From positions 64,001 through 128,000 of the IMG/VR virus record IMGVR_UViG_3300046820_003928: 64,000 nucleotides of DNA. One strand, 5' to 3'. Under the pieces are notes generated by a model, which saw nothing but the letters and a program-made list of their open reading frames with translations, was not told where the DNA came from and made no database searches. Positions 21,668-64,000 of this stretch are shown here, one piece after another. Numbering within the stretch: position 1 is the first letter of the stretch; every line of letters starts with the position of its first letter. The position numbers and the translations under genes were made by a program. This stretch comes from a virus.

Positions 21668-22188
21668 CCCATCGATCCCGCAAGGGCTATAACATAGGCA
21701 TCTGCCATATCATAGGCGATCTCTTTGATCTCACCAGATTTCTTCAAAGGCCAGTCAATGCTTACTTGACTTGACACCCACTCAAAGACTTTCTGCTTTG
21801 TATTTTTTGTTTTGTCTTTGTGATCAATTTTGATCTTTAGGTGGTTTCTTGCGTTTGTTACATTGAGAGACACTGGATCAACTTGAAAAACCTGGTATGA
21901 GACATAGCTGCAAGCTCCGTTGAATCTTGCAAGCGTATTGATAGTGTGTGCAGAAGAGAGGCCCCTTCTAAATGAACTCAAGTTCTGCTCGATGAAGACT
22001 CTATCGACATTGAAGTCTTTCTTGATGACTTGTAATCGCTCTTTCACAAACTCACACTTTTCTGAAAATGATGTGTGCTTGGTTAGAACGATAGGCTCTA
22101 TGTGGACAATTTTCCCAGAAGAATCAAGGCAACAAACACCTGTGCAAGATGTTGAAATGTCAAGTCCCATCACAACGCTAGAAGTCAT
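21655..22188 (-). CDS. RuvC-like Holliday junction resolvase
   Basis: MGLDISTSCTG, VFIEQ, DMADAYVIA. Confidence 0.85.
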   Translation of the reverse strand: MTSSVVMGLDISTSCTGVCCLDSSGKIVHIEPIVLTKHTSFSEKCEFVKERLQVIKKDFNVDRVFIEQNLSSFRRGLSSAHTINTLARFNGACSYVSYQVFQVDPVSLNVTNARNHLKIKIDHKDKTKNTKQKVFEWVSSQVSIDWPLKKSGEIKEIAYDMADAYVIALAGSMGCKE

Positions 22189-24514
22189 ATCTCAGCCTAA
22201 AGGTAATTTCATCTCCCTCTCTCTTTTGAACAACTTGAGAGAGATTTGCACGCATAACAATGTTGAAGTTTTCATCGTGCAGGTTTATTCCAGAAATATA
22301 CACGAAGTCTTCTGCCTGTTCTGATATTAGATTTGTTGGTGGGAAACTCTTGTATGTCTGATTATTTGATTTATTGAATAGATCGGATCTAGCAGGTACA
22401 GAGAAGTTTGCAACTGTCTTTCTCATTTCTCCCCTGAAGCTTATCTCGAATGAGTTTTTTCCAAAGAAAGAAAGGTGAGGAGAGATGATAGTGATAATTC
22501 CGTGATCATAAAAGACAGAACCTACACGATTCCAGGCTGCAGCCTTGGTAGAAGAGTCTGATCTATAAATGTTTCCCCTAGAATCATCTCGAAGGGTCAT
22601 GGATAGACCTCCAGACCCAGAAAGAGAAGAATCTGTCATGACAAGAGTCCCAGGGACTATTCTTGTCATATAGTAGAGGCTTGGAACAGAGAACATGACT
22701 GACCTATTTGAGCTATTATCAATAGATCTCGTAGTAGTAGATCCATAATTGACATTCTGGTATAGAGGCAAGTATGGATCAGATCCGTCATAGCTAAAGT
22801 CATCAAAGGCGACGGAAGGAACGTAGATTCCAGCCGGAACAAGAGAGTCCATCGAAATTAGCATTGAAGATGTTCCAAATCCAATTTCTTTGAATCTAGA
22901 TCTATCTTTCTCTAGAACAGAAAATGAGGGCTCAAAATTTCCATCATCGCAGGGAAGAATAAAAAAGTTTCTTGCTCTATTTTTTTGCTGCTGCATTAGC
23001 AGCTGCTCAACAGTTCCATCACGAGAATCAAAAGGTGTAGTTACAACAGTCCCTTCAGACATGTTATAGGCTCGAGATTGCTTGACCCTTGCGAAATCAA
23101 TTGTGAAATTTTGAAGATTAACAAAGGTTGAATTATATCCGGATGCAAGACTAAAAGATACTGGGCTATCAGTGCGCTGTGAAGATATCGAAGTGGGTGT
23201 ATAGTAGGTAAACACTGCAGAAGGAATTGATGAAGTAAAAAACGGAGGGAGGAAGAAAGCGGGCCCAGTTGTTTCTGGAGAGTCAACAATTATATCATTG
23301 ATGTTTGAAACTTCAGAATCTGTGATGTATCTCTTGAATAGCGTTAGATTGTGAATTTCTGCGTTTAGAGGGTGACTAAATCCAAATCCTACAGGGTCAG
23401 TTGTACTTCCTACAGGATCTATTAGAGTCCCGTAATTTATCGCGGCAAAAGTGTTGAAAAACTTGGATATTCTGTCTCCGCTATTGTAATAGTTTCCAAT
23501 CACAAGTGCATCAGATGAAAGACCTGTTGATATTGAACTACTTGGAATGTTGAAGATGAATCTTTTTTCATCAATGTTTATCGAACAGTCTCCGTAGCTT
23601 CTTGTGCTTCCTCCCCATCTAATTGTAACTCGATGCCAGCTGTCTCTCTTCAGCTCCTCAGGAGGCGAAAATATAAGATTTGCAGGAAATGAAAGTGGGA
23701 TAGAGGAAGCATCAATGCTGGATGGCGCAATATCAGCACTCTGACTAAGCTGCAACAAGACTCTAAATGTATCTGGTTTTCCATCAATCCCAACAATTGA
23801 TCCGCTTATCAGAGAAACGCAGATAGAAGAAGAAAGATGAAATACTGTCCCAGCTCTAAAATGCCCAGTTTCGTCGATAGGTGCCCTCGGCTTGATGAAA
23901 AAGTCAAGGCTGAACGGACCTTCGGGCGTATAGTCTCTAATTCCGTCAATGTTTGGAAAATTTGGAAATACAAGAGCTGAGCTTGTTCCAAAGTTGCTGG
24001 AAGAGACAAAGTTCAAGCTGTTGTAGTTTGTGTAAGCATTGAAAGAAAGAGGGTTCTGGATTCTCTGTTCTCTCATTAGAACATGTGTGGCGGATTTTCT
24101 TTGAAAATTTATCCATTCTCCAGGATCTTGATCTGCTCCTCCGCTTGGTCCTTCAATGACTGAAGGTGGAGATGAATATCTAACGGGATATGTTGTTGAA
24201 AACTGCTGTGCATTCACAGCAGAGTCAGTTGCACTTCGAAGATACGTCTCCATGATCGTACTGACATCTAATACACCAGAGATGACTTGCTGACTTGCGT
24301 CATACAGGAAGTCATCATCTGCTGTAACGCCATCTGTCTCAACAAATCTCGTACCTGATCTTTCTCCTACAAAAGACCTGATCGTTTGTGACTGATTTGA
24401 AAAGATATCAACTGATCCAGTCAGGCCCGAAGATGAAGAGGAAAACGATCGGCTTGGTTGTAATACAAGCGTCGTTACCTCTATCAGATCCGGGCTGATC
24501 TCGATGACAGACAT
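22178..24514 (-). CDS. Tail/baseplate structural protein with a LamG-like domain
   Basis: FSLDFFIKP...WHRVTIRW...LVIGN...AEIHNLTLF; C-terminus paralogous to 24521-25807. Confidence 0.65.
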   Translation of the reverse strand: MSVIEISPDLIEVTTLVLQPSRSFSSSSSGLTGSVDIFSNQSQTIRSFVGERSGTRFVETDGVTADDDFLYDASQQVISGVLDVSTIMETYLRSATDSAVNAQQFSTTYPVRYSSPPSVIEGPSGGADQDPGEWINFQRKSATHVLMREQRIQNPLSFNAYTNYNSLNFVSSSNFGTSSALVFPNFPNIDGIRDYTPEGPFSLDFFIKPRAPIDETGHFRAGTVFHLSSSICVSLISGSIVGIDGKPDTFRVLLQLSQSADIAPSSIDASSIPLSFPANLIFSPPEELKRDSWHRVTIRWGGSTRSYGDCSINIDEKRFIFNIPSSSISTGLSSDALVIGNYYNSGDRISKFFNTFAAINYGTLIDPVGSTTDPVGFGFSHPLNAEIHNLTLFKRYITDSEVSNINDIIVDSPETTGPAFFLPPFFTSSIPSAVFTYYTPTSISSQRTDSPVSFSLASGYNSTFVNLQNFTIDFARVKQSRAYNMSEGTVVTTPFDSRDGTVEQLLMQQQKNRARNFFILPCDDGNFEPSFSVLEKDRSRFKEIGFGTSSMLISMDSLVPAGIYVPSVAFDDFSYDGSDPYLPLYQNVNYGSTTTRSIDNSSNRSVMFSVPSLYYMTRIVPGTLVMTDSSLSGSGGLSMTLRDDSRGNIYRSDSSTKAAAWNRVGSVFYDHGIITIISPHLSFFGKNSFEISFRGEMRKTVANFSVPARSDLFNKSNNQTYKSFPPTNLISEQAEDFVYISGINLHDENFNIVMRANLSQVVQKREGDEITFRLRYDF

Positions 24515-24520
24515 AACACC

Positions 24521-25807
24521 TCAGTAGTCGAGTCTTACTCTAAATGACAGCTTCTTTTCGTCATTTTTCTCAACAGGTCTCGAAAGTTTTGCAACTGCAA
24601 GAAGGTTATCTGCAGCATCGTAGAGTCCGATCGTTGTAATAAACGTAAAGGACTTCTGTGTTGTCTCTTCGCCCTGATCAATTACAACTATTCTTCCATC
24701 AGAATCTGTGAATGTCGGGTTTGATGAATAGTTGAACTCATCTGCAGAGGCCTCACAGAACACCAGTGTTGAATTGATTGCAGTAAGATTCTGGAATGTG
24801 ATAGCAGTGTCGTTAGAATTGCTAGAATTTCCAAATCTAACCGAAGCTAAGTGATTGATGATGTCATCCATTGAAGAGGATACAACAAAGTCTGGAATGA
24901 ATCTGGCAGATGGATTTTCAACAGCTGACCAAACATTTCTTCCGATAAACGTTGTTCCTGCCTGGGTGGTGACTCCGCCAAATGTATCAGATGCAGTTGC
25001 TGCACTGATTACTCCGCTCATATGCTGCGATGAAAAGAACACCTTTTCCATGTCAAGGACAGCGATTCCCTGATCGTAGAAGATCAAGCCCACGTTCTGC
25101 GAGGTGTTAGATGCATTTATCAAATTTGAAACAGTTCCACCATAGGTAAACTGGGGAGCTGATCCGGCGCCTGCATCGGTGACAATAAATGATCCTGATG
25201 CAGCAGGATAGTCTATGTTAGATGCTGTCAGGGTGTTTCTGATTGACTTCTCATATGCAGAAGCATTGACAGATCCGTCAAGGGCTGCCGATGCGAAGAT
25301 CTTCATTGCGAATGTTTCGTGCTTTATTCCATCTCTTGAAAAGAGTCTCTTAAATGGAATAAAGACCGCAGCGTCAATTTTGTCATCGGTTCCAGCATTT
25401 GTAAAAGGAGAGGTAAACTGAGCGTTTGCATTCCCGAGTAGAATCTGCGCAAACTGACTGTAGACTTGAACCTTCTCTCTCATCATTGCAGTATTTGAAT
25501 CAAATGTAAGCTTACCAGCAGTGTCAACTCCGTATCCAGGAGCTCCTGTAACGAGTGTGCTAGAAGCAAAAAGACCAACTGTTATGTCAAACATCTCGTT
25601 GGCGGTTGCAAGAGTAAAATCTTGATCAAAGACTGTCTGGAATAAAGAAGACGTGATAGATGCAGCACCAGATCCAGAAATGAAAACTTCATATGCCTTT
25701 CTGGTTGCTGATCCGCTGACACTTTCCTGGACAACATCGACAAGCTGATTTAGAAAAGACTTTGCTGTCTTTATGTCTTTAGGTCCGATACCTTTGTAGA
25801 CTGGCAT
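24521..25807 (-). CDS. Tail/baseplate structural protein with a tail-collar-like C-terminus
   Basis: EFNYSSNPTF...FITTIGLYDAADNLLAVAKLSRP...RVRLDY. Confidence 0.7.
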   Translation of the reverse strand: MPVYKGIGPKDIKTAKSFLNQLVDVVQESVSGSATRKAYEVFISGSGAASITSSLFQTVFDQDFTLATANEMFDITVGLFASSTLVTGAPGYGVDTAGKLTFDSNTAMMREKVQVYSQFAQILLGNANAQFTSPFTNAGTDDKIDAAVFIPFKRLFSRDGIKHETFAMKIFASAALDGSVNASAYEKSIRNTLTASNIDYPAASGSFIVTDAGAGSAPQFTYGGTVSNLINASNTSQNVGLIFYDQGIAVLDMEKVFFSSQHMSGVISAATASDTFGGVTTQAGTTFIGRNVWSAVENPSARFIPDFVVSSSMDDIINHLASVRFGNSSNSNDTAITFQNLTAINSTLVFCEASADEFNYSSNPTFTDSDGRIVVIDQGEETTQKSFTFITTIGLYDAADNLLAVAKLSRPVEKNDEKKLSFRVRLDY

Positions 25808-25816
25808 TTTTTATCC

Positions 25817-26521
25817 TTACTGTGTAGTTGTAACGTTGACCTGAATGTCAGTTCTCTGACCTGAATTTCTTCCAATTATTGCAACGTATGTTGTGATGTA
25901 TGAAGTTCCAGGAATTTTATATGCAAGTTGAGTTGCTGCAGGAACAGACTGTGGCACGATGCTAAAGGAAAGCTGCGAAAGCGGGTTTGTTGCAGATGTT
26001 GAGCTTGCCGGGAATGTGTAAGTTGCAACGTTTGTTGAAGAAATAGACGTCGGAGTAGTTACATTGTTAGAAAAAGCACGAAGAAAACGATTATCAAGGT
26101 AGACAAAGAAGTCATCATCGATAAGCTCAGGAGGACAAGAAAATCCATCTGCTATTGTTAGCTGTACACTTACTGCCTGAGCTGATTTGCTGGAAAAGTT
26201 CAAAGAAATTGCACCAACAGGAGAGATCTCAAAAGTCGGAAGGTAAGTTACAACATTTGAAACTGTCGATACGCTAACAAGACTATTTCTAAGGGCAATA
26301 TTTGGATTCGTAAGGGCCTCGAAGACAGGTGTGTTCTTTTCTATCTTCTCTTTTCCAACTGTTCGACCGTATTGCTCTATGATTCCATAGTCAACTTCAT
26401 CATCAGCAAGCGCAAACTTCGTAATAACAAATCGACCCTGTGAGGCAAGTAGCCTTCTACCTGTATCTGTAAGAACAGCGTCAAGGATGATGTTGTTCGT
26501 GCTCTGGTCTAAGAAACCCAT
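25817..26521 (-). CDS. Tail/baseplate structural protein with a tail-collar-like N-terminus
   Basis: DAVLTDTGRRLLA...ITKFALADDEVDY; late motif upstream. Confidence 0.7.
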   Translation of the reverse strand: MGFLDQSTNNIILDAVLTDTGRRLLASQGRFVITKFALADDEVDYGIIEQYGRTVGKEKIEKNTPVFEALTNPNIALRNSLVSVSTVSNVVTYLPTFEISPVGAISLNFSSKSAQAVSVQLTIADGFSCPPELIDDDFFVYLDNRFLRAFSNNVTTPTSISSTNVATYTFPASSTSATNPLSQLSFSIVPQSVPAATQLAYKIPGTSYITTYVAIIGRNSGQRTDIQVNVTTTQ

Positions 26522-26542
26522 ATTCTTCTAACCTCTCATCTT

Positions 26543-26553
26543 TAAATATCACA
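26543..26553 (-). promoter_or_regulatory. Putative late promoter TGTGATATTTA
   Basis: Same 11-mer as at 11015-11025; GAGG RBS downstream. Confidence 0.55.
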
Positions 26554-26573
26554 CTTTTTAGTTCGCAGGTAAA

Positions 26574-28355
26574 TCAATTAGCTGTGTAAAACCTGGCTAG
26601 ACTTGCAGGTATTCCGTCTGATCCTATTCTAATGTCTCCGATTGAAATGTCAACTGTTTGATTTTGAATGAGATTTATTTCTGTAAGTGAAAGTTTGTAA
26701 TTTATGCCATCAAATCCTGTTGTCGAAATCAAAGAAAGCGATTCTCCCTCTCTTGTGACATCAAGATATTCGGGATCAAAGTAGATCCTAATCCTGCTGT
26801 GTCCGCTGTCCTTGATTAGATCGCTGAAGAAATCACCCAGAATATTGACATTTGGATATGGCTTTGGTGCACCAGCAGTAGAGATCCTAGAAACAAGAAG
26901 TTTTCCTGTTATTCTATCAAATCTTACACGGAATTGCTCAGAAAAAGAAGAAGAGTATCCGTGAGCATCAATACAGCACAGGGCGTAGATGTAATCGCTG
27001 GAAAAATCAACGAAGGTTGTATCAAGATAACTCTTCTTTGGACCTGACTCTATTTGAATCTTGCTCTCAGGAATTGTCTCTCCTGACGTGTATGGCAAAA
27101 TTGTGTTATCAAAATTGATCTCTCTTATGATTGAGAAGGGATCATTTATACTCTTCCTTCTAAAGACCTGAAATCTCTTGATATCTTTTTGTGGATTAGA
27201 GGGAAAGTTCCATCGAATGTATAGTCCAGAAAGTGTCTGCTGGAAGGAAATGTTGACCGGTGGGTCGGGAGGAATTATCTCAATGCAGTCAACAGTTGCA
27301 AATTCACCAGTAGATGCAAATAAAGAAATTGCGACAGAAAACCCTTCAGGCGTAGGAAATGATGATGTATCTGCAAGAGAAAAAACAGACGAATAAATCG
27401 TTCTAATCTTGTACTTGTATGTTGCTCCGTACCTTACTTGTGTATCCTGGTATGAGCTGATTGTGGGATCTTCAATTACTATATCTGGGTAACGAAGCGT
27501 TGAACCGTCAAGCTGCTCACCATATTTCTCAATAATATAGCCAACTTTTCCGCTTCGAAGACCCGATGTCTCTGTTCCCGATCGAAAAAAATTAGAATAA
27601 ACAGTCTCAATTTCAACGTCAATTTCATTTTCTGTTATTCTAAAGGGATCAAATGCCGTAGATTTTGCCCTATCCTGAACGGGAACTGATTCATTATACG
27701 CTGCTGCAAATTCATCAGCATATGCAGATGCTTGCCATCGTGCAGAAGTCTCAAGAATATCAGATACAAATAGGTTATTCAGAGACAGGCCAAGATTTAC
27801 TGCTTTTACATCGGTCTCATATAAGTTTGTTATCTCTGAACGTGTGTCTGCCTCGGAAAATTTAAGACCAGACGACTGTTGCCTTCCTGCGCTAAGAAAA
27901 TCTCTTGTCGATGCATTCGTTGCAGAAACATCCGACGAGCTTGCAAAGCTGTAGATCTTCTCATCGACTGCGGTGTCATGAATGAGAATTCCCGAAAAAT
28001 TATTATCAAAGGGTGCATCCTCGTAGATTAGCTTTCCTTGATCGATTGCGTTGCTAATCGTCAACCCCTCGGGCAGTGAAGTATTTTCATATTCAGTATT
28101 TGATGAAAATGAAAGGTTCACAACTCGAGGTAGAACTCCATTTTCATAGTTTTCAGATACAAAAAGATATTGATCAGTGTCTGCATCGATTGAATCTAAG
28201 AAAGTCTCCTCAGAGACTCCTTCGTCTCTTGTGTAGTAGTTGTACACAAACTCTGCTTCTATTTTTTCACTTTTTGGAAAGTAAATGTAATAGAAAGGAA
28301 TGCTTACAGATGAAGTTGCGAAGAGAAGATCAGAATCTGTAATGTATGAAGACAT
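26574..28355 (-). CDS. Virion structural protein with FN3/Ig-like domains
   Basis: YQDTQVRYGATYKYKIR, PPDPPVN...IRWNFP, YIYALCCIDAHG. Confidence 0.6.
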   Translation of the reverse strand: MSSYITDSDLLFATSSVSIPFYYIYFPKSEKIEAEFVYNYYTRDEGVSEETFLDSIDADTDQYLFVSENYENGVLPRVVNLSFSSNTEYENTSLPEGLTISNAIDQGKLIYEDAPFDNNFSGILIHDTAVDEKIYSFASSSDVSATNASTRDFLSAGRQQSSGLKFSEADTRSEITNLYETDVKAVNLGLSLNNLFVSDILETSARWQASAYADEFAAAYNESVPVQDRAKSTAFDPFRITENEIDVEIETVYSNFFRSGTETSGLRSGKVGYIIEKYGEQLDGSTLRYPDIVIEDPTISSYQDTQVRYGATYKYKIRTIYSSVFSLADTSSFPTPEGFSVAISLFASTGEFATVDCIEIIPPDPPVNISFQQTLSGLYIRWNFPSNPQKDIKRFQVFRRKSINDPFSIIREINFDNTILPYTSGETIPESKIQIESGPKKSYLDTTFVDFSSDYIYALCCIDAHGYSSSFSEQFRVRFDRITGKLLVSRISTAGAPKPYPNVNILGDFFSDLIKDSGHSRIRIYFDPEYLDVTREGESLSLISTTGFDGINYKLSLTEINLIQNQTVDISIGDIRIGSDGIPASLARFYTAN

Positions 28356-31300
28356 TATGAGTTTATCCTTGCATAAAATTCTGTAAGAACATTTCCTACA
28401 TTTTTTCCTTCATATAGAACATATACGATCTTGTCAAACAGAGGTGAAGATTCAAGGTCATCAAGCATTGTTGTAGTTATAAAGTCTCTGTGCATCATTA
28501 TCATAGATCTAAGCCTTGCATATTCGAGTGCTCTATCTGCATCCTCAGTCCCATATCCAGCTGCTATAAGGATCTCATTGGCTGTGATGAGCTCTGGATA
28601 GTCTCGTGACATGGGGGTTTTTGTAGTAGCATACCTTACATATAGACCGTAAACGTCCTCAAGATATGACTGCAATGCTGCCTGGACCACTGCAGAAGAG
28701 TAATCGATGGATCTCTGATTTTCTGTCATTTCAGATCTAAATAGAGTTGAAAGAGAAGAAAGACCAGAGTTCGACACTAGATACCCGATGCTATTATCGG
28801 ATAGATCGCTTGGTCTTGCATTTGATTCAAAGTCATCATACATTCCAACGATGAGACTATTGAACGGACCTCCAGTATCTGGTCTATTGTTTTTTGCAGA
28901 TTCAATATACTTGAACTGGTAATCTATTTTGTTTTCATCAGTTTCTGCAGAGACATCGTCAGCAAAAAGATCAACTCCAAAATAAAACTTTCTTTCGGAT
29001 TGAGCAAGTCGTAATCTCTCGAGTAGGCCGTACGGGATACCCACTATACAGACTTGAAGGTCTGATCTTTCTGGTATCCTGTCTTTAAAAACTGCCTCAA
29101 TTATCGATCTATAGTTTTGTGACCTTGTCGCAATCGTGCTTATGCTTGTTCCGGGTATAAGTGTCTGGTATCTTTGTGATCTATAGAGAAGCTCAACAAT
29201 TGACTCTGGTGTTAGATATCTTCCAGCGATCCTTGATGCTCTGTCTGAATCTCCGCCATATTGTCCTGCTATTATTGAGATTTGATTTTCAATCTGCCTA
29301 ATTGCACTAACTTGGGAATTCAGCGTGGTTAACTGATACGCAATGAGAGAAATCAAGTCTTGAGATACCTGAAGTGAGAATTTCACAGGAGATCTTGCGA
29401 ACTTAAAAAATGACTCCTGTCCTATGTCAATATCTGACTGTTCAGGGGATTCTCCTGTGATTATCTGATAGTATTCGAAATCAAGATCACTTGCCTGAGT
29501 ATTCTCAAAGGCTCCTCTCAAAGATTCAACAAGAAATGCAGCAGATGATCTGAACCACTCAATCGAACCTCTAAACCTGTTGTTTGACTCATTATAAGAA
29601 AGTGCAATTCTAAGTCTTAGCTTTCTAATGAAGTAAAGAAACATTGTAAAAGCTGAGATTTTTATCTTTCTTCTTAGACTTTCTGATGTTGAAATTGCTG
29701 GGTACTTTGTCTCAAGTACACCTAGAATTCCATCAAAAATACCAAGAATTCCACTTGAGGCAAAGATGTTGCTAAATGTATCTTCGTAGTTGTCTCCCTT
29801 TCCAAAGTCTATCTCAGATTTTGCCTGATTTTTCTGGATTTGATCACCAGTTCCTGTTCTTGTTTTGGTAAAATCAGACTTGCTATCTTTGACAAATCCA
29901 GTTGAAAAAGTAAATTTATCATATCCATCACTTTCATTAAAGATGTCGTCTCTGGATCGAAAGAGATCACTTTCAGGATTTTCATTCATAATCTTGGAAA
30001 GAAGCATGAGAGCATTTTCATCATTCTTGGATGCAAGACCAAACATTATCATTCTAAGGGTGTCTAATTCGCTTGGTGAATCTGAACAAAGCGAGACGTT
30101 TATTGCATGTCCAAAATAATCATAGAAAGCTCTCAGAACTGTCAATGCACACTGGTTCGTTATTACGGCTCTATTTTCAGAAGGAAATCTTGAAAGAGAT
30201 CCGGCAATTTCATCGATTCCAGATTTTATCAAAGCAAGATCTTCTAGTTTTTTAATCAAAATGTCTTCAATAGGAGAATAAATGTTAGATTCATTGACAT
30301 TAGAACTAATAAAACTGTCAAATAGTGATAAAATCTGACCTTCAGAAGTTTCCACAAATCGTATAGAGTCCTCGGTTGTCTGATTGATAGTAATGTTTAC
30401 CAGATCGTCCGGAAGAAAGGCAGAAATTCTTCCCGCATCTTCTCTTCCTGGACGAATTGAAACTGGGAGGCTTTCTAGCTGCGAAAATCCAGACACTTCC
30501 ATTATTTCATATGCAAGAAATACCGGAATCTGTCTAATAAACTCTGTTGTAGCAGCATCATTTCTAATTGCATATCCGAATTTAAAGGCAAGAGAGTTTC
30601 CGTAAGATATGTTATTGTCAATGGCAGCCTGCTCAATTTCATTATAATTGTTAGATGCAGAATAAAATTCAGCAACCTTTGCAATCGATGATTTTGCAAA
30701 GGATAGATTAGAATTCATTGATATTCTATCGGATGTAAAATCCTGAAGCTTTGCCACAGTAAATGCATCGACATCATCATATGGATTTAGATAACCAAAT
30801 TCATCGATATCATTTAGCCTAATTCCCTGAGTTATCTGAAAAAGAGCTGCCTTTAAAATCTGATATTGTCTTGTGGTCTTTATCTGGCTATTTCTCTCAA
30901 ATTCAGATCCAGCAGGGCCAATCTTCTTTCCTATGAATCTGTCAACCATCTGAGAGTAGATGTCTTTGTTTGAGCTATTGTATTTTGAAACATCGTCATC
31001 GACATAGTCGACTGACATATTTCCAAAGTCTCCCGTATCTGAACTTGTAAAAGAAAATGAAAATGCAGATGGTCCAGCAGGTCCTAGCACGTTTCTAGGT
31101 TCTGCAACTGTTGTAGCAGAGTCTATCGACACGCTTAAAAGTTCTGAATCTGTGGGCGTGGTAATTTTTGTTGTATCAATAATTTGCTCTTTTAGAGACC
31201 CAATCTCTATGAGAGCTTTTGAGACTGTATTGTATTTAGAAAGATTCTCGTTGCGCCGTGACGCAATGACTTCCGGCGCCGTTGGAGATCCGTCACTCAG

Positions 31301-34683: not shown

Positions 34684-34700
34684 AAATGGGCCCTCATAGT

Positions 34701-45040: not shown

Positions 45041-45043
45041 CTT

Positions 45044-45514: not shown

Positions 45515-45519
45515 GTCTG

Positions 45520-45526
45520 TAATTAT
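45520..45526 (-). promoter_or_regulatory. Putative late promoter ATAATTA
   Basis: ATA-N-TTA 5 nt upstream of the gp25 ATG. Confidence 0.35.
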
Positions 45527-45557
45527 TTAGAGAAAAAGCATGCCATGAATCTCTTAT

Positions 45558-46655: not shown

Positions 46656-46661
46656 AAATCT

Positions 46662-47759: not shown

Positions 47760-47760
47760 G

Positions 47761-48141: not shown

Positions 48142-48154
48142 TTTCCTTCCTAGA

Positions 48155-51542: not shown

Positions 51543-51565
51543 GTCTATTTATCTAAAGATAGTGA

Positions 51566-52416: not shown

Positions 52417-52417
52417 G

Positions 52418-56129: not shown

Positions 56130-56138
56130 CTATTTCAC

Positions 56139-56561: not shown

Positions 56562-57354
56562 TTAGGTAATTCTCACATAGATAGTCTTCTGCTATTGGCA
56601 AACTATTTGTAATATCAAAATTTTCTTCAATTGCTTTCATTTTATCATAATATATGCTTTCATCAAGATTTTTAATATCAGTGTTGTCATCTAGAAATAT
56701 AACTCCATCTGGATTGAAGAATTTTTCAATAGATCTTGTGCCCCAATAGATTGGAATTGTTTTAGAAGCAAAACAATCAGTTAGTTTTTCAGTAAACATT
56801 GTATCATAATTTCCATTTTCAATGGCTACAGAAAACTTGTAATCAAATAAGCCTTCATCTTTGGTTTTAATTTCATTAAAACCCCTTCCAAAGTGATCAA
56901 CTTGATTCTTAAACTTCTGTATTAGATGCTGTCGATATAAGTGCTCATTGCACATAATTTTTGAAGATGCAATCATTGATACTTTTTTAGACTTTGGCCT
57001 ATTGTCAAAATCTCCAACCCAGGGCTTGGAATTGCATATTACAAATTTTATTTTATTAGAAAGAGACATCAAGCTCTTGTCGTGTGTAAAGATATAATCA
57101 AATTCTTGCTCAAGAAAACTAATGTTATTCTCTACTGCAGAATATACGCCAGGTATGATTGATCTTGCTTCAACAATCCAGGCATAGTTCTTATTTCTTT
57201 TATTAACCCTGTGCGTGAACATTGCATTATCAATGTGAATTGATATATTGCTTGATAAATCCTTTGTCCATTCTATTTTGGTTGGAACGTAACCCGCAGA
57301 TGAGCAAATGTCGTGCTGAAAACCCCCGCCAACCATGTTGACTTTTATTCTCAT
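56554..57354 (-). CDS. GT10 alpha-1,3-fucosyltransferase-like protein
   Basis: YKFSVAIEN...TEKLTDCF...IPIYWG. Confidence 0.8.
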   Translation of the reverse strand: MRIKVNMVGGGFQHDICSSAGYVPTKIEWTKDLSSNISIHIDNAMFTHRVNKRNKNYAWIVEARSIIPGVYSAVENNISFLEQEFDYIFTHDKSLMSLSNKIKFVICNSKPWVGDFDNRPKSKKVSMIASSKIMCNEHLYRQHLIQKFKNQVDHFGRGFNEIKTKDEGLFDYKFSVAIENGNYDTMFTEKLTDCFASKTIPIYWGTRSIEKFFNPDGVIFLDDNTDIKNLDESIYYDKMKAIEENFDITNSLPIAEDYLCENYLND

Positions 57355-58154
57355 AGTTTTAACCAGGTTTCAGGTATTAGATCAGAAGAATTTAGATGTT
57401 CTAGATTCTTTCCAAACCACTGCTGCGGTGCTATGACTATCTTTTCAGGATTAGTATTAAGCCACGCACCCCACCAAGAAAAAGATGAGTTAGCTATGAT
57501 ATTATGCGCACACTTAGACATCAAAGACATCTCCATGTAATCCTTGTTTTCACTCGAGAACATAATATCTTTCTTAAAATCACTTTCTTTAAAATTTTTT
57601 TTGCACCATTCAATATCATCACTAAAGATCATGACATGATCTATTTTTGCACCAATTTGATTAATAGAATTAATGTAGTATTCTTTTGAGATAACTGGAT
57701 GATTTTCACTAAACTTTAGATAATCTCCCCTTCTTATATGAATTGAACACGTCTTTTTTAAATCAAAATTATTATATTTTGAAATATCAATGCAATCTGT
57801 GTCAAAGATTTTAACTATATCATCCCTTGAATCTATAAAGTACTTTTCACTTTGAAAAAATCCGTCAAATAGCATTCCATCTCTAATATCATTAAATTGG
57901 ACATAGTGAAATGGAAAATTAACTTGATATTGAGGCGGGTTATGAACACTTTCATCGATATTTTTTATGAATCTTCGATACTCGTGCGAATAATGACAGT
58001 TTTGATTGTGTATCTTGTCATTTTTTAAATTTTCTATGTGATTACTAAAATTTGGAAAAGAGCATGAGATGCCCGATCTTTTAGAAAAACTATTCATGGC
58101 TGCTATTTGAAACATCATGTTTCCTAGCCCACCCTTTAGATTGCAGTAAATCAT
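57351..58154 (-). CDS. GT11 alpha-1,2-fucosyltransferase-like protein
   Basis: GGLGNMMFQ, GFFQSEKYF, HIRRGDY, IIANSSFSWWGAWL. Confidence 0.92.
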   Translation of the reverse strand: MIYCNLKGGLGNMMFQIAAMNSFSKRSGISCSFPNFSNHIENLKNDKIHNQNCHYSHEYRRFIKNIDESVHNPPQYQVNFPFHYVQFNDIRDGMLFDGFFQSEKYFIDSRDDIVKIFDTDCIDISKYNNFDLKKTCSIHIRRGDYLKFSENHPVISKEYYINSINQIGAKIDHVMIFSDDIEWCKKNFKESDFKKDIMFSSENKDYMEMSLMSKCAHNIIANSSFSWWGAWLNTNPEKIVIAPQQWFGKNLEHLNSSDLIPETWLKL

Positions 58155-58909
58155 CTATTTTTTTCAATTGTGTTGTATGGATTTCTTGTTCGAATGAGTC
58201 TGTCAACTCTATTCTGGTCATCTGCGTTAATTACATCATCACTGATTGGATTCCACCTATTATAGACATAAAGAATATTTGGAATATAGACAAAATTTCC
58301 TCCTGACATTTCAAGCATAGGAATCATAAATGAGACGTCCCATCCGGTTCTGAAATATTCTCCATCTTCGTCTCTCAGATCCTCATCTTTAATGGCATAC
58401 CATAGATGACTTTTAAATGTCCTAAGATGACTTGAAATAAACTTGTAAGATCTATAAGATCCATCCCTAATTACTTCTGGTGGAAAGTTCCTTGGAAAAG
58501 AAGTCTCTCCTGTTGGCCAGTGAATAAAACTTCCGTACGTAAGAAGAGGATTGTTTTTCTCATACACCTGATCAACGAGACTTAGGGAGTACTCACAAAA
58601 AAGATAATCATCCCCATCAACAATCATGAGAACAGATTCAGGATCTTCCTTGCATCCTAGCTGATTAAAACCGTCGACAATATTTTGAAGCGCTTTTTTG
58701 TTTATTGTGTTGTGAACAACAGAGAATCTACTGTCTCCAAAATTCTGGATGAATTCATCTATTTTTTGTCCAGTCCCATCTGTTGATGCATCATTAAAGA
58801 TGATGCACTCATAGTTTGTGTGTGCCTGGTTTCTAATTGAAAAAAGACAGCGCTGTATCCAATTTTCAGTATTATAAGTTGGAACAACTATCTTGAATTT
58901 TGTTGTCAT
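58151..58909 (-). CDS. GT2 glycosyltransferase
   Basis: IVVPTYN, NDASTD, VDGDD. Confidence 0.9.
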   Translation of the reverse strand: MTTKFKIVVPTYNTENWIQRCLFSIRNQAHTNYECIIFNDASTDGTGQKIDEFIQNFGDSRFSVVHNTINKKALQNIVDGFNQLGCKEDPESVLMIVDGDDYLFCEYSLSLVDQVYEKNNPLLTYGSFIHWPTGETSFPRNFPPEVIRDGSYRSYKFISSHLRTFKSHLWYAIKDEDLRDEDGEYFRTGWDVSFMIPMLEMSGGNFVYIPNILYVYNRWNPISDDVINADDQNRVDRLIRTRNPYNTIEKNR

Positions 58910-59622
58910 CTTTCTTCTCTATTTGTGCTAGTATTTCTTCTGTAGAGATAAGGAGATTCTGCAAGAATAGAAGTCGATCTAAGGCTCAATGTAACTCTTG
59001 AATTGAAATCAGAATCTTCACTATGCAAAACTCTAATTCCAATTTCGGGCGGATTAAATCTAAATCCAATATCCCATATCTGCTTAATGAACATTGCGCT
59101 TACACCTGCTGTCTCAAAATCTCCAGTAAAGTAATGATTAATTCCAGGTGTTTGGAATCCAAAAGCAACAGCAGCAGAGACATCACTTGGCCCTATGATC
59201 TTCAAAGATTCTGGCTTCTTTAGAGAAGAACCTTCAAGAACGTCTTTTTCATTCCAGCAGTGCTTAAATCCACAAAGATTGTGGATTGTGTTTGTCTCTT
59301 TCATTGCTGCAATCTGCGATGAGATCCTCCAGGAAAGAGAAACATCATCTGCATCGTGAGCTGTACAGATTGATGCGTTAGTTGTTGAAAATGCAACGTT
59401 AAGAGCGTTCCACTTACCAGAGTTCTTTTCAAGTCCTATGAATCTTATCCTGGGATCAGAGAAAGATCCTACGATATCTCGAACCTGATCTCTATCATCC
59501 GAGAAATCGTCAATAATTGCGATATCAAGATTTTGATAATCTTGGGACAGAATGCTCTTGATCGACTCTTTAAGATATGATTGATGATTGTAGTTGCAAA
59601 TTGCAACGCAAACCTTGCTCAT
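58906..59622 (-). CDS. GT2 glycosyltransferase
   Basis: AICNYN, IDDFSDD, HDADD, SED. Confidence 0.88.
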   Translation of the reverse strand: MSKVCVAICNYNHQSYLKESIKSILSQDYQNLDIAIIDDFSDDRDQVRDIVGSFSDPRIRFIGLEKNSGKWNALNVAFSTTNASICTAHDADDVSLSWRISSQIAAMKETNTIHNLCGFKHCWNEKDVLEGSSLKKPESLKIIGPSDVSAAVAFGFQTPGINHYFTGDFETAGVSAMFIKQIWDIGFRFNPPEIGIRVLHSEDSDFNSRVTLSLRSTSILAESPYLYRRNTSTNREER

Positions 59623-61451
59623 TCTTCAATTACCAAATGAGGCGTCTTATTGCTCCAGTCGATCTTTCGGTGAAATATGTGTCCACCTAGATCATCTGCA
59701 ATTCTTCGTGCAAGATCTGATATTTCTGCATCTGTTACTTCAGACCAGGGCTTATCAAAGAACATGTTGTTCTCTGCCGTGTCTTCTTGCTTAATATCAT
59801 ACAGGCTTTGCCAGTGTCTCTGCCAGAAGGTCTTATATGTCTTAATCTTCCTCTCTATATCAAACCAGGAATAATGACGAACTGAAGGTAGAACATTTAT
59901 CACATTTCGATACCAAGCTTGGTAAGCTTCCAAGGCTTCTCCGCTCCCATTCAGGGCAGCAGATCTTGCGCGATGAGCCTCTTCTGTGTAAAAATTTGCG
60001 CTCTGGATTGGGTATCCTGTCTCACTGTGAATGTAGTCGCATCCATCAGTTCCCTGCATCGAAAAAAGGTCTCCGTTTTCATCAAATCTTCTTAGCTGAG
60101 CAGGGATTCCGTGTGTAACGTGAGGAAGATTTCTACTAAGTCTCCACTTCCAGGGAGTTATATCCATCCGCACCTTTTCCTTGGATCCCCAATATTCAAC
60201 CACGGGAAGACAAATTAGAGTTGCGCTCTTTGGAAAGTTCTTGCATAGATTTCTAACCTTCTCCCAGTCTGATTCTGGTAGAATCTCATCTGCATCCATC
60301 TGCCAGCAAAAATCACCTGTGCACAGCTTCCTAGCAACTGCCTTCTGGTCGCCGTCAAAGACAGCAAACCGCTTATGATTCCAGTCCCTAATGTTTTGGT
60401 GGATCTTTAGCTTGGGCTCAATTTCTGCCCAAGAGCTTAGGTGCTCCCAGGTTCCGTCAGTAGATCCCCCATCAACAACGACAACCTCATCACAGAATCC
60501 AAGGAGAGATCGTATCGATTCCTCGTAGGGATACTTGTTCTTGATGCAATCAAGTGAGGTTGTGTATCCAGATAGGCTGGGTTCATTCTGTGCTATCTTT
60601 TTGACAACACCCCAGAACACATCAGGCCTGCCCTTAAGATAGTCACAGACGTCATCTGGCGCTGACTGGAACCAGTCTTCACTTGCATGCTGGACGTTTT
60701 CATTGTTGACAACTTGACATCCTAAAAGCTTTGCCTCAATCACCATCCTGGGGCAGGTATCTCCGCCTCGGGGTAGATAAACAAACCCCTCAGATCTAGA
60801 AAGCTTATCAAGAAGCTGGTCATATGGCATATCCCAGACAATCTCATATTCCTTCTTGTTTAGCTTGCACCAATCTTCGGCATCTTCTGCACCTTTAATC
60901 CAGGATTTAGATCCCAATACAACCCATCCTTTTCTGATGGGTCCACCTCGAAGGATCGATAGCTGGTCAATTTTTTCAAAAAAGCTCCTTCCAAACACAG
61001 AACTCAAAACTGTGCTATTTCGATCCTTTAGAAACGGGAATCGATCATAGTATCGACCTCGCTGCTCTTGAGACATCCAGAAGACATGATCTGCTGCATA
61101 ATAGAAAGCAGAGACCATCTTTCCTGTATCTTGATTGTGGCAGTCACAATCTTGTCCCGATTCATGCTTGTGCTTCTCAACAGATCTATACCTGCAGAAC
61201 TTGTAGTCATATTCCAGGACTGAGTATCTTAGATTGGCAGCAATTGCAGGAATTAGATTAAAGTCAATGCTTGCAAAATTTCCAAAAATCCAGACATCAT
61301 CCTTGAATCTCTGGATTGTCTCAAGATTAAGATTTCTGGCGTGGATTTTAACCACCTCAATCGGGCTAGATTCAACAAGTGCCTCTGTTGTAAGCTCCGC
61401 TCCACCTGCATAGTCACTAGAAAAAAGATCTGCTACGAATATTGCTCTCAT
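59619..61451 (-). CDS. Bifunctional glycosyltransferase (GT-B-like N-half + GT2 C-half)
   Basis: GGAE, IKG, DTCPRMVIEAKLLG; then VVVDGGSTDGT and MDADE. Confidence 0.8.
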   Translation of the reverse strand: MRAIFVADLFSSDYAGGAELTTEALVESSPIEVVKIHARNLNLETIQRFKDDVWIFGNFASIDFNLIPAIAANLRYSVLEYDYKFCRYRSVEKHKHESGQDCDCHNQDTGKMVSAFYYAADHVFWMSQEQRGRYYDRFPFLKDRNSTVLSSVFGRSFFEKIDQLSILRGGPIRKGWVVLGSKSWIKGAEDAEDWCKLNKKEYEIVWDMPYDQLLDKLSRSEGFVYLPRGGDTCPRMVIEAKLLGCQVVNNENVQHASEDWFQSAPDDVCDYLKGRPDVFWGVVKKIAQNEPSLSGYTTSLDCIKNKYPYEESIRSLLGFCDEVVVVDGGSTDGTWEHLSSWAEIEPKLKIHQNIRDWNHKRFAVFDGDQKAVARKLCTGDFCWQMDADEILPESDWEKVRNLCKNFPKSATLICLPVVEYWGSKEKVRMDITPWKWRLSRNLPHVTHGIPAQLRRFDENGDLFSMQGTDGCDYIHSETGYPIQSANFYTEEAHRARSAALNGSGEALEAYQAWYRNVINVLPSVRHYSWFDIERKIKTYKTFWQRHWQSLYDIKQEDTAENNMFFDKPWSEVTDAEISDLARRIADDLGGHIFHRKIDWSNKTPHLVIEE

Positions 61452-61490
61452 TTGTATACATTATTTCAAACTAGATCTAGCGTATACAGG

Positions 61491-61516
61491 TCCGCCCCGA
61501 TTTGTATCGGGGCGGA
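61491..61516 (-). terminator. Perfect 11-bp GC-rich hairpin after the fibre gene (no U-tract)
   Basis: TCCGCCCCGAT-acaa-ATCGGGGCGGA, 13 nt after the stop. Confidence 0.55.
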
Positions 61517-61529
61517 ACCTAAAGAGAGA

Positions 61530-63215
61530 TTAGATTTCTTCCATTAGGAATTTGTATCTCTTTCCTGTCTTATTGTTGGTGATAGACAGGAAAGTCTCTT
61601 CCTCGATGACTGTCCAGTCACCGCGGTCGTTACGAAGGTGAAGGTCACCGGTATACATGTTACGCCAGCGCTTAGTTGGAGATCCAAGATCAAACGAAAT
61701 GTCCGAGCCTGGCTCCAGGGATCCGCTTACCGAAACTAGCGTTGTTCCAGCTGTAGACCCGAGATTAATGTTGGTTGTAGATCCGGCCAGACCTCCAGTT
61801 CCAAAATTAAGAGTCTTTGTAGTGGCAGTCGCTGTTGCGCCTGTTCCAATGTTGTAGGTTGAAGATCCGGTTGAGGCAGTTCCAAGGTTTAGCGTCTGTG
61901 CAACAGTTGCAACGTTTCCAATTGCAAGAGTCGTTGCTGCTCCTGCAAAGTTAACAGTAGTTGCATTTGTATTGACGAGGTTGGTGGTAGTTAATCCAGC
62001 TCCTGGATTCATAGTAAGAGTCGTAGAGTTGGGAGAGACAACTGAGAATGCTGGTGATCCGTCTCTCTGGAATACGACACCAGAAGTTCCCGCCTTCAGG
62101 TAGAGAACGCTACCAGTTAGAGCAGTCTCTGCAGTGCTTCCTAGAATAGCACCTTTTGATGATTGAGCAATAAATCGAATTGCATTAACCGACTCAGCGT
62201 AAGATCCTGACTGAACTCGAAGTATGTTTGTTGCATTCTCTTGGAACTGAACAAATTGACCTGTTCCAAACTGAAGATTAATTGCATTGGAGGCAGAGAC
62301 TGCAAGATCTGATCCATCAAGTTTCAGAGCGTTTGTTGCTCCAGCAACTTGGAACTGAGAAGCTCTAATCGGGGTCGGAGTATATCCGGTTGCATCCCCG
62401 ATTGTTCCTTCTGTGACATCTTGTCTTCCTGCTCCCCAAGTATTTGTGTCAACCTTGACAAAAACAAGGGCTTGATTAGCAACGTCTGATCCTGAAGCTA
62501 TTGCAACTCCCCCATAGGAAACAACGCCAGGAGAGGATGCGCTTGCAATATAAATCAGCTTATCTTTAACTGTAAGATTTTCAGTATTGATCGTTGTTGT
62601 CGTTCCATTAACAACAAGATTTCCTGGAAGGATTACGCTGCTTCCTACAAAAGTAACAGCTGTATCTCCAGTGCTAGACTTGATTGCGTTTCCATTAAGC
62701 TTTAGAGACCCAGAAACTGAGAGATCTCCCGATGTCTCTGCGAGAATAACCTGATTTCCAGATCCGTTTTTGATAGAGAAAGAACCCGATGTTACGACAG
62801 AGCCCGTGGTAAAGGCCTCACCAGCAGTAACTGAATTCCAGTATGATGGCTGAGCGTGAGAACCTACAATTATCTCAGAGAGTGAAATATCTCCGCTTGA
62901 GTCAGCAAATGTAAGACCTTCCGTTCCGCTAAAAATCTGAGCGATTCCACCCTGGAACTTGATATCATTGGAAGTAATTGTTATAGAGCCAGTTCCTACT
63001 GTTAGAGATCCGCTTACTACGGTGTCTCCTCCAAAGACTGAAACTCCTGAAGTTCCTTTTCCTCCCCTTGATCCGCTTACAAAGAAATCAACATCATTGC
63101 CTGGCATTGCAGGAAATGGATTTGAACGCGGGTTTGCTATCCTGACTGATCCTGTTATTCCAATGCGCCAAGAGTCAGAACTACTTCCCGAGATATTATT
63201 GGTAATGAGAGCCAT
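61530..63215 (-). CDS. Fibre-like virion protein with a conserved YTGDLHL C-terminal module
   Basis: G/S/T-rich; GNLVVNGTTTTINTENLTVKD; DLGSPTKRWRNMYTGDLHLRNDRGDWT; AGGAG RBS. Confidence 0.75.
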   Translation of the reverse strand: MALITNNISGSSSDSWRIGITGSVRIANPRSNPFPAMPGNDVDFFVSGSRGGKGTSGVSVFGGDTVVSGSLTVGTGSITITSNDIKFQGGIAQIFSGTEGLTFADSSGDISLSEIIVGSHAQPSYWNSVTAGEAFTTGSVVTSGSFSIKNGSGNQVILAETSGDLSVSGSLKLNGNAIKSSTGDTAVTFVGSSVILPGNLVVNGTTTTINTENLTVKDKLIYIASASSPGVVSYGGVAIASGSDVANQALVFVKVDTNTWGAGRQDVTEGTIGDATGYTPTPIRASQFQVAGATNALKLDGSDLAVSASNAINLQFGTGQFVQFQENATNILRVQSGSYAESVNAIRFIAQSSKGAILGSTAETALTGSVLYLKAGTSGVVFQRDGSPAFSVVSPNSTTLTMNPGAGLTTTNLVNTNATTVNFAGAATTLAIGNVATVAQTLNLGTASTGSSTYNIGTGATATATTKTLNFGTGGLAGSTTNINLGSTAGTTLVSVSGSLEPGSDISFDLGSPTKRWRNMYTGDLHLRNDRGDWTVIEEETFLSITNNKTGKRYKFLMEEI

Positions 63216-63241
63216 TCAATTCTCCTTGAATTCTTAGCTAA

Positions 63242-64000
63242 TTATCTTTCATCAAACTCTGGAGCCGGCTCAAGAACAAATCTGTATCTTTTTCCTGACT
63301 TATTAAATCTAATTGTGAGACAGTCTTCTTCTTCGATTAAAGTGTAGTCTCCACGATCATTTCGAAGGTGGAGGTCTCCGGTGTAGACATTTGCAAATCT
63401 ATTTGAAGCCGAGCCAAGATCTATAGTTCTGTCTCCGACTGGAATGATGTCAGAAGAAATTCTGGCTTGAATTGAAAGAGTATTTGACAGGCTATTTCCA
63501 ATAACAGTAGATCCCGAGACGACAAGATCTCCTCCGAAGACTGAGACTCCTGATGTTCCAATTCCACCAGAGGATCCTGAAACAAAGAAAAATACATCGG
63601 AGCCTTTTGAATCTGCTGAGGTATTAATTCCTACAGCAACCGATCCCGTGGAATAGATCTTATTTAAGGACGCCTCAGACCAATAAGAGGCTCCTCCTCC
63701 GCCTGCAGTTGAATTAATTGTTATTTGACCGTTTGATGCAGTCGTAATTGTGACGTTTGTTCCTGCTACAAGATACGGTAATCCAGCAGCAGTTCTCTGT
63801 AGAGATCCAGACATATCAGAATCAAAGACAGCACGGCTGGTTACCCTGGCATAATCAAAAGATCCTGTCAAAGAAACGGCTTCCAGCCATTTTCTAGAAG
63901 GAATTCCCAGCGAAAAAAGACTTGTTGATGAGGGAATTATGTTTGAATTAACTCTTCCAACAAAAGAGACAAGGTCTCCAGATGTCTCGCCAAAAGTAGT
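63242..64000 (-). CDS. Fibre-like virion protein, 5'-partial; paralog of 61530-63215
   Basis: Frame stays open past the track start (63871) to the window edge (TTFGETSGDLVSFVGRVNSNIIP...); shares two blocks with its neighbour. Confidence 0.75.
   Translation of the reverse strand, partial: TTFGETSGDLVSFVGRVNSNIIPSSTSLFSLGIPSRKWLEAVSLTGSFDYARVTSRAVFDSDMSGSLQRTAAGLPYLVAGTNVTITTASNGQITINSTAGGGGASYWSEASLNKIYSTGSVAVGINTSADSKGSDVFFFVSGSSGGIGTSGVSVFGGDLVVSGSTVIGNSLSNTLSIQARISSDIIPVGDRTIDLGSASNRFANVYTGDLHLRNDRGDYTLIEEEDCLTIRFNKSGKRYRFVLEPAPEFDER

Follow-up and report, generated by a model that had tools for sequence, protein, structure and literature searches.

Genes and features of the locus

The DNA examined here (the window) is a 64,000-nucleotide stretch of one virus contig of 140,420 bp (IMG/VR record IMGVR_UViG_3300046820_003928), of which it covers positions 64001-128000; the minus strand holds nearly all genes. 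Our subject is the tripeptide [ST]-G-S, which in the outer tail proteins of this uncultured marine phage and its clade is found three to six times more often than expected by chance, and its relation to a cluster of glycosyltransferase (GT) and nucleotide-sugar genes in the same region. A first-pass annotation, made from the sequence alone, had proposed that the tripeptide belongs to an O-glycosylation sequon, [ST]-[GAS]-[ST], and that the particle carries a glycan coat. In our judgment the motif and the cluster, which lie side by side, are probably not mechanistically coupled.

The presence of a T4-type portal (PF07230), a gp23-type capsid protein (PF07068) and a large terminase identifies the phage as a distant T4-like myovirus. 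The cultured phages closest to it are Flavobacterium phage vB_FspM_immuto, Microcystis phage Mel-JY01 (for which a literature search found no publications) and Rhodothermus phage RM378, and the clade is the 'Far-T4' group of Roux et al. 2015 (PMC4360716). For comparison, about 80 related IMG/VR contigs were collected with the gp6-like wedge protein, and T4 and cyanophage S-SSM4 served as control genomes for motif and GT content. The features of the region are listed in Table 1. Consistent with the first-pass annotation, a large GT and nucleotide-sugar cluster, soluble as judged from hydropathy, lies between the fiber and baseplate genes on the same strand.

Table 1. Features of the window around the GT cluster, in window coordinates; motif counts are [ST]-G-S observed/expected from composition.
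Feature	Position	Strand	Motif count	Basis or remark
Fiber paralog, 334 aa	63242..64000, on to 64246 past the window	minus	7/1.7	Carries the fiber's FFVSGS...VVSGS module and the fiber's C-terminal module
Tail-fiber-like protein, 561 aa, densest in motif	61530..63215	minus	13/2.3	
GC-rich hairpin, ~13 bp, without U-tract	61489..61519	minus		Just past the fiber stop; read directly
Five tightly packed GT genes: GT2 (610 aa), GT2, GT2, GT11, GT10	56554..61451	minus		Pfam PF00535 (three), PF01531, PF00852; no transmembrane segments
Sugar-nucleotide cassette	52418..56561	minus		Pfam, NCBIfam
Clade-core module: PD-(D/E)XK nuclease, GT4a (50301-51542), GT4b (49141-50343)	49141..52381	minus		Pfam PF00534; synteny
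Five conserved small/medium genes between GT4 pair and baseplate wedge	45044..48910	minus		PHROGs, synteny, hydropathy
gp6-like inner baseplate wedge, motif-free	43190..45040	minus	0/0.9	PHROG 219/6
Eleven peripheral baseplate/fiber-like proteins, including the 506-aa, 1152-aa and 931-aa proteins	22178..43181	minus		Motif counts, AF2, Foldseek, Pfam LamG
1152-aa protein	38206..41664	minus	7/2.3	
931-aa protein	34701..37496	minus	10/1.9	

Enrichment of [ST]-G-S in the outer tail proteins

The counts that had drawn attention to the tripeptide (13 in the fiber, 10 in the 931-aa protein, 7 in the 1152-aa protein, none in the terminase or in SbcCD) were reproduced exactly, and the 506-aa protein adds four copies where 0.8 are expected. 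A composition-corrected comparison of structural with non-structural proteins, the check that the first-pass annotation had suggested, bears the enrichment out: the 13 peripheral tail proteins together hold 52 copies versus 15.6±3.9 in 2000 residue shuffles, the highest count in any shuffle being 29, while the remaining 117 open reading frames (ORFs) of the genome hold 40 versus 30.4. When all tripeptides of the structural block were ranked, TGS came first (25 vs 6.2, z 7.5) and SGS second (27 vs 10.5, z 5.1).

The order of the residues matters. SGS occurs 27 times in comparison to 10 for SSG and 12 for GSS, and TGS 25 times in comparison to 10-13 for each of the five other orders of T, G and S. 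As permutations of the same residues stay flat, neither overall nor local composition explains the enrichment; richness in S, T and G is thus ruled out as its cause (SSG, GSS, TSG and the other permutations are not enriched), and S/G content, an explanation that the first-pass annotation had anticipated, does not account for it. Codons at all three motif positions are diverse and mirror general usage, placing the signal, and selection on it, at the level of the protein and ruling out a DNA-level motif. The wider form of the motif did not fare as well: in the structural block SAS (12 observed, 8.2 expected), TAS (6, 4.9) and SGT (10, 6.2) are not clearly enriched, SSS occurs 18 times with 18.5 expected, and TGT falls below expectation (2, 4.1).

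The motif recurs in different folds, as had been remarked from the sequence. The 506-aa protein consists of a domain resembling carbohydrate-binding modules (CBMs) followed by FN3/Ig-like sandwiches (AlphaFold2 (AF2) model and Foldseek), the 1152-aa protein contains LamG (Pfam), and pairwise BLASTP among the fiber, 931-aa, 1152-aa, 506-aa and 352-aa proteins found no significant similarity (all E>0.1). No solved structure matched the 506-aa family in a structure search, and ten structural proteins of the phage had no match in a PHROGs search. Duplication of a few modules as the source of the motif is partly ruled out; the fiber and its 334-aa neighbor are paralogous, with the module FFVSGS...VFGGD.VVSGS at the N-terminus of the former and in the C-terminal half (about residues 215-250) of the latter, and the other motif-rich proteins are mutually dissimilar. 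The fiber and its neighbor also have a C-terminal module in common (DLGS..RW.N.YTGDLHLRNDRGDYTLIEEED...) that is invariant across 46 homologs. The 352-aa protein just mentioned is encoded outside the window (genome positions 24601-25659), among early or nucleotide-metabolism genes; it holds eight [ST]GS where 1.3 are expected, and its repeated module, [ST]GSL...G..YL.AG....I....NG.I.I, is found in the 334-aa fiber paralog as well.

The major capsid protein (MCP), in an insertion of which the first-pass annotation had noted the motif, does carry three copies in comparison to 1.1 expected, an excess that is not significant alone. Taken together, the counts support a genuine enrichment that depends on residue order and is limited to peripheral virion proteins. 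The MCP gene (6272-8179) stands out for its composition, region 6001-8000 having 56.6% GC and a positive GC skew versus about 40-45% GC around it. The Gp23 Pfam match of the MCP is split, its best stretch covering residues 358-625 of 635, which points to a compositionally foreign insertion in the N-terminal half; in the structure search the MCP matched only T4-type (gp23-like) MCP structures.

The motif in relatives and control genomes

Enrichment of the motif runs through the whole Far-T4 clade (immuto, Mel-JY01, RM378 and about 80 marine contigs). In 120 homologs of the fiber, [ST]GS occurs 1482 times versus 350 expected (a ratio of 4.24), and an alignment of 46 homologs reveals several SGS/TGS sites that are invariant within the N-terminal 80 residues. 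The observed/expected ratios for related tripeptides in the same 120 proteins are 0.96 for [ST]GT, again at odds with the wider motif, 0.6 for NGS and 1.0 for DGS. Homologs of the 506-aa protein are enriched both where a GT4 pair lies nearby (98 copies, 15.4 expected) and where it does not (244, 41.7), as are homologs of the 1152-aa protein (127, 24.7 with the pair nearby; 102, 21.2 without); homologs of the 931-aa protein have 61 copies with 15.6 expected. The gp6-like wedge is depleted, with 13 copies versus 44 expected across 78 homologs.

Among the cultured relatives, the tail proteins of immuto are enriched (for example, 26 copies with 5.9 expected in a 1053-aa tail spike), as are those of Mel-JY01 (11/1.4, 9/0.6 and 5/0.6, with almost no [ST]GT) and an RM378 block at 64.8-76 kb (21/3.3) that has no BLAST similarity to this phage. 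Enrichment is weak in the baseplate proteins of LR756508, a 484-kb phage (6 vs 2.4). Neither control genome is enriched in the motif: T4 has nine copies versus about 13 expected, and S-SSM4 has 10 versus 9 in its four baseplate/fiber giants. These counts rule out, for the exact tripeptide, a generic property of T4-type or marine phage fibers. The same S-SSM4 giants (L086 1-17445) enrich sister tripeptides (SGN 14/3.5, GSG 16/4.7, SGT 15/5.2), and as no gene matching PF00534 or PF00535 was found in S-SSM4, or in T4, it is evident that ordered S-G-polar tripeptides can rank at the top of such a list without a phage GT2 or GT4.

A soluble glycosyltransferase cluster with a clade-wide core

Pfam supports seven GTs in the cluster, GT4a and GT4b included, rather than the eight counted at first. 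Beyond the five GT genes the cluster continues (reading from 61451 down to 52418) with a WbuC cupin, a NeuD/PglB/VioB-type acetyltransferase, an unknown 278-aa ORF, a weak SGNH-like ORF, a short DegT-like fragment and a Gmd-like dehydratase, and it is AT-rich at 54-58 kb (GC 0.32-0.33). The DegT-like ORF (53384-54791 region) encodes 254 aa, and its match to the aminotransferase profile ends after one third of the latter. It overlaps the next, weakly SGNH-like ORF by some 60 nt and may be what is left, by truncation or decay, of an aminotransferase within the AT-rich cassette. Hydropathy analysis gave no transmembrane-like segment in any cluster protein, and the Pfam matches of the cluster include no initiating transferase, flippase, polymerase, exporter or oligosaccharyltransferase family, from which it follows that the pathway is soluble and stepwise.

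Both GT4 families keep the EX7E motif, and GT4a shows unusual conservation in its N-domain, on the acceptor side. The neighbors of GT4a in the ESM-Atlas fall in clusters that are 87-100% viral. Its PDB matches (5d00, 6kih, 3c48/3c4q, 3mbo) include the small-molecule GT4s BshA, MshA, TreT and SPS, and the third-best is the GT B736L of chlorovirus PBCV-1 (3oy2), a weak match that is generic for GT4 (E ~1e-5).

Gene order is the same at 22 loci, namely nuclease-GT4-GT4-(five small genes)-gp6-like wedge-506 aa-1152 aa, and GT4a is better conserved (up to 69-87% identity) than the neighboring tail proteins. Even the closest relatives, 66-90% identical in the PD-(D/E)XK gene, have different genes immediately upstream of the nuclease, so the cassette is variable. 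More distant contigs have no GTs within 10 kb of the baseplate genes, and three near-complete genomes of that group have an adjacent GT4 pair at another location. The synteny of the nuclease-GT4-GT4 core extends to immuto, Mel-JY01 and RM378. In immuto the core is distant from the tail genes and the sugar cassette that comes after it is another one; Mel-JY01 has two neighboring GT4 genes, and in RM378 the core, with an adjacent GT4 pair, lies among replication genes. The RM378 pair is placed between a 'DNA polymerase I-like' ORF, which it follows, and the ribonucleotide reductase gene (L089 8212-11893), and a UDP-galactopyranose mutase is encoded near homologs of window genes 24521 and 25817 (L091 23986-25137). 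All of the long relatives tested encode a GT4, and all but the huge phage LR756508 have an adjacent pair; LR756508 has the nuclease, GT4a and a GT10-like gene and no adjacent second GT4 (L088 10253-13311, 21315-22169). Apart from LR756508 with its GT4a only, no relative lacking the GT4 pair was found among the long relatives tested that could serve as a within-clade contrast.

The correlation with GT presence that the first-pass annotation had called for holds in part: motif and GT4 pair occur in the same clade, and T4 and S-SSM4 have neither. Since that clade is monophyletic and furnishes no relative without the pair, the correlation amounts to a single evolutionary event.

Structural context of the motif

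Positions -1 and +1 of the motif are hydrophobic in 56% of cases versus 33% in the background. An AF2 model of the 506-aa protein, built from an alignment of 50 sequences, reached a pLDDT of 88.3 (the monomer model of the fiber, at 61.5, was unusable). Of the four sites in the 506-aa model, residues 302-304 form a two-residue beta-hairpin turn, 283 lies at a strand end, 369 within a strand and 343 in coil following a helix. The alignment of this family has about ten hot-spot columns, each with the motif in a third to three-quarters of the sequences, at which [ST]GS alternates with TDA, TDS, TGA, SGN, SNS, SPS, LNT, TSS and TAS. The first hydroxyl residue is the most stable, Gly exchanges with Asp, Asn, Pro and Ser, and the third Ser exchanges with Ala; these swaps at the middle position mark the middle residue as a turn-former.

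In two-residue beta-hairpin turns of types II' and I', the loop begins with Gly and continues with Ser, Thr or Asn, and ST-turns cap strands. The motif resembles these in its hydrophobic flanks, in the exchange of its Gly with Asn, Asp and Pro, and in the one modeled site that is exactly such a hairpin. A generic turn preference, in contrast, does not explain why position 3 is strictly Ser, why Asn and Asp are excluded from position 1 or why the motif is restricted to one clade.

Other features of the region

One of the five conserved genes between the GT4 pair and the wedge (45558-46655) encodes a 365-aa product that is weakly tape-measure-like and has hydrophobic segments. The hairpin past the fiber stop may be a terminator, or an RNA-stabilizing element, that separates the fiber gene from the GT operon; a consensus scan did not pick it up, and promoter and terminator scans were at noise level. 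The sequence ATANTTA is under-represented overall (16 vs 32.7 expected). Its minus-strand sites (770, 3863, 11015, 20661, 26543, 34702, 45520, 49070 and 63239) lie mostly just upstream of structural gene starts and never directly upstream of a GT gene, which fits a late-promoter element.

Discussion

Turn motif or sequon

We favor, at about even confidence, the possibility that [ST]-G-S is a structural turn motif and that whatever the GT cluster glycosylates has no link to it; between a beta-turn and a sequon, the turn is somewhat more likely. Speaking for the turn are the hydrophobic neighbors of the motif, its placement at strand edges and in a hairpin, the turn-forming residues that take the place of its Gly, the invariant sites of the fiber N-terminus, the sister tripeptides of GT-less S-SSM4 and the weak enrichment in LR756508 in spite of its GT4a. 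In this scenario Φ-[ST]-G-S-Φ (Φ being a hydrophobic residue) would be a clade-specific structural signature, favored at strand ends and tight turns by the beta-rich modules (CBM-like, FN3/Ig-like, LamG and fiber repeats) from which the outer tail proteins are built. Its Gly would adopt a left-handed backbone conformation and its Ser/Thr would cap strands, and sister tripeptides might do the same job elsewhere, namely SGN, SGT and GSG in S-SSM4 and GST in T4. The cluster, for its part, would be a soluble cytoplasmic pathway in which sugars are added singly by a PD-(D/E)XK–GT4–GT4 core and a swappable cassette (three GT2, GT10, GT11, Gmd, aminosugar and acetyltransferase genes). The analysis shows the enrichment with its order specificity and clade distribution, the gene content and the lack of membrane and export genes; what the motif does in the fold, which acceptor the GTs use and when they act is inferred.

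Several observations do not sit easily with a structural turn. The motif is stricter than a generic turn, and Asx-type equivalents would be expected if backbone geometry alone mattered, whereas NGS and DGS in the fiber homologs are at or below chance. It recurs in proteins that are mutually dissimilar, such that common ancestry of their modules is not established, and in the RM378 block that lacks BLAST similarity to this phage. There is no enrichment in T4, motif and GT4 pair have exactly the same distribution over the clade, and the acceptor side of GT4a is conserved to an unusual degree. Finally, the four modeled sites are heterogeneous in context and do not conform to a single geometry.

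Several of these observations lend some weight to the original proposal, here narrowed to [ST]-G-S on a strand-edge loop as the acceptor tag of a Far-T4-wide virion O-glycosylation, which we regard as a serious contender and nonetheless unlikely. One active GT4 would add the first sugar to Ser/Thr of folded tail proteins in the cytoplasm, and the second GT4 together with the variable cassette GTs would extend it to give a strain-specific glycan coat. Much of what has been described is in keeping with this idea: the two top-ranked tripeptides and their order specificity; the strict need for Ser at position 3 and for Ser or Thr at position 1, where Asn and Asp are not used; the occurrence of the motif in unrelated folds and families and its confinement to peripheral proteins, the wedge being depleted; the virus-specific GT4 pair in the same clade and its absence, along with the motif, from T4 and S-SSM4; the conserved acceptor domain of GT4a; a soluble pathway without export genes; the lack of a reported glycosylated nucleoside in immuto DNA (see below); and the variable cassette content among relatives that are close in the adjoining nuclease gene.

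Against a sequon, the co-occurrence of motif and GT4 pair is one phylogenetic event for which no GT4-less relative provides a contrast, and the turn-like context, hydrophobic flanks and G to D/N/P exchange fit a structural role. The invariant sites of the fiber lie in a probable N-terminal attachment domain that is likely to be buried, GT-less S-SSM4 enriches analogous SG-x tripeptides, and LR756508 has GT4a yet little of the motif. Furthermore, strict tripeptide sequons have a low prior for cytoplasmic O-GTs; we know of no bacterial or phage enzyme of this kind that reads one. The paper on the Kuenenia S-layer states no motif, and our literature search found no proteomic or glycostain data for any Far-T4 phage. 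What stands of the O-glycosylation proposal is thus the ordered enrichment in peripheral proteins, the GT cluster and the clade that the two have in common; the wider motif does not stand, and the restriction to one clade and the turn-like context weigh against the rest.

There is precedent for phages glycosylating their own virions. According to the description in PMC12619734 of the work of Freeman et al. 2023, mycobacteriophage virions are O-glycosylated by phage GTs; these phages are siphoviruses, and it is their capsid and tail-tube subunits that carry the glycans, on C-terminal extensions. The likeness is that phage-encoded GTs (seven here) would act in the cytoplasm on structural proteins of the same phage and that GT content varies between relatives. 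The Far-T4 case differs in that the candidate sites are an internal tripeptide in baseplate and fiber proteins of a T4-like myovirus; the MCP of this phage has no C-terminal extension, its Gp23 match reaching residue 625 of 635.

Two further systems invite comparison. GtfA/GtfB (Gtf1/Gtf2) GT4 pairs O-GlcNAcylate serine-rich-repeat adhesins, and the phage cluster is similar in having two adjacent GT-B/GT4 genes and, if Ser is the acceptor, modification in the cytoplasm ahead of export or assembly, with extension by further GTs. In contrast to GtfA/GtfB, both phage GT4s keep EX7E, meaning that there is no degenerate, substrate-binding chaperone subunit, and the putative acceptors are not long SASA-type repeats, SAS and TAS being close to expectation; a PDB sequence search with GT4 gave no specific match to GtfA. 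The chlorovirus PBCV-1 encodes Gmd and cytoplasmic GTs that glycosylate its capsid, with N-linked glycans on the major capsid protein. These enzymes build the virion glycan independently of host machinery. PBCV-1 resembles the phage in having virus-encoded Gmd and several soluble GTs, and differs in being a eukaryotic virus whose glycans are N-linked to the major capsid protein.

What the cluster glycosylates

The core is kept in phages with hosts of three phyla, for which reason the acceptor of the cluster GTs is most likely phage-made. Among phage-made candidates we would place virion proteins first and DNA second, and we regard it as an evenly balanced question whether the cluster glycosylates virion proteins, with or without a tag.

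An alternative that we consider improbable is that the cluster remodels a host molecule (lipid-linked lipopolysaccharide or capsule intermediates, a surface glycan or a small-molecule glycoside), for superinfection exclusion or metabolic redirection, and that the motif is unrelated. Its gene content is indeed O-antigen-like (Gmd, DegT, NeuD/VioB, WbuC, GT2, GT4, GT10, GT11), the AT-rich cassette looks horizontally acquired, and the PDB matches of GT4a include small-molecule enzymes (BshA, MshA, TreT and SPS). However, the GT4 core is up to 69% identical across phages of Cyanobacteria, Bacteroidota and Rhodothermota, which makes a host-specific envelope acceptor unlikely, and the GT4a family is almost exclusively viral. 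Nucleotide-sugar enzymes and several GTs are also what the cluster has in common with Wzx/Wzy or ABC surface-polysaccharide clusters; unlike these, it has no initiating phosphoglycosyltransferase, flippase, polymerase or exporter, oligosaccharyltransferase or transmembrane-like segments, as judged from Pfam and hydropathy.

Less probable still, and in our view very doubtful, is that the GT4 pair, perhaps with the cassette, glycosylates a modified base of the phage DNA, that the PD-(D/E)XK nuclease acts on unmodified DNA and that the motif is unrelated. We know of no DNA modification as large as the glycan that seven GTs (GT10 and GT11 among them) and a 6-deoxy-aminosugar route would build, and by this general comparison of size the cluster is more than such a role would call for. 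The known 5-hydroxycytosine arabinosyltransferases of RB69 and DLP3 are GT4-like, with BshA (3mbo), MshA (3c4q/3c4v) and SPS (6kih) as top structural matches (PMC13326640), and these overlap the PDB matches of GT4a. The conserved nuclease-GT4-GT4 synteny and the position of the RM378 pair among ribonucleotide reductase, helicase and polymerase genes would also be in line with a DNA target. Like T4 alpha/beta-gt and the RB69/DLP3 enzymes, the GT4s here are GT-B enzymes of a T4-type phage that have generic PDB matches and act, if the cluster is a pathway, in series; they differ in lying in a larger cluster with a GDP-6-deoxyhexose route and in having no base-hydroxylating enzyme or nucleotide kinase beside them. 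A kinase-TS fusion encoded in this genome has no homolog in any of the cultured phages (immuto, Mel-JY01, RM378), and consequently does not travel with the GT4 pair. The first-pass annotation had itself named DNA as an alternative target, and published data weaken it: in immuto, which has the module, analysis of virion DNA by liquid chromatography with UV and mass spectrometric detection found dA, dC and dT in canonical form and formyl-preQ1 (fdPreQ1) in place of all dG, and no glycosylated nucleoside was reported (bioRxiv 10.1101/2023.04.13.536721).

Phosphorylation by the phage's PrkA module can be dismissed as a clade-level cause of the motif because PrkA is absent from immuto, Mel-JY01 and RM378, and SEA-type autoproteolysis between its G and S is implausible with at least 10 sites per protein. 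The PrkA-type Ser kinase itself (genome positions 132988-134952) has its closest cultured-phage homologs in the Thermus phages TMA and phiYS40 and not in other Far-T4 phages.

Implications for Far-T4 phages

Far-T4 phages abound in oceans and lakes, and the majority of their tail proteins cannot be assigned to a known family. With three cultured members (immuto, Mel-JY01 and RM378), the question of what the motif does is directly testable. If [ST]-G-S does turn out to be a sequon, it would be the first case of sequon-directed virion glycosylation in T4-type phages, and marine phages of this type would join the actinobacteriophages as carriers of virion glycans. The tag would then mark sugar-coated virion surfaces and explain the core gene pair of the clade, and it would bear on host recognition, on adhesion to marine polysaccharides and mucus and on escape from defenses. 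If, as we favor, the motif is a structural turn, it would provide a cheap sequence marker of outer tail proteins where homology searches fail, and would serve as a warning that sequon-like enrichment beside GT islands can arise without glycosylation.

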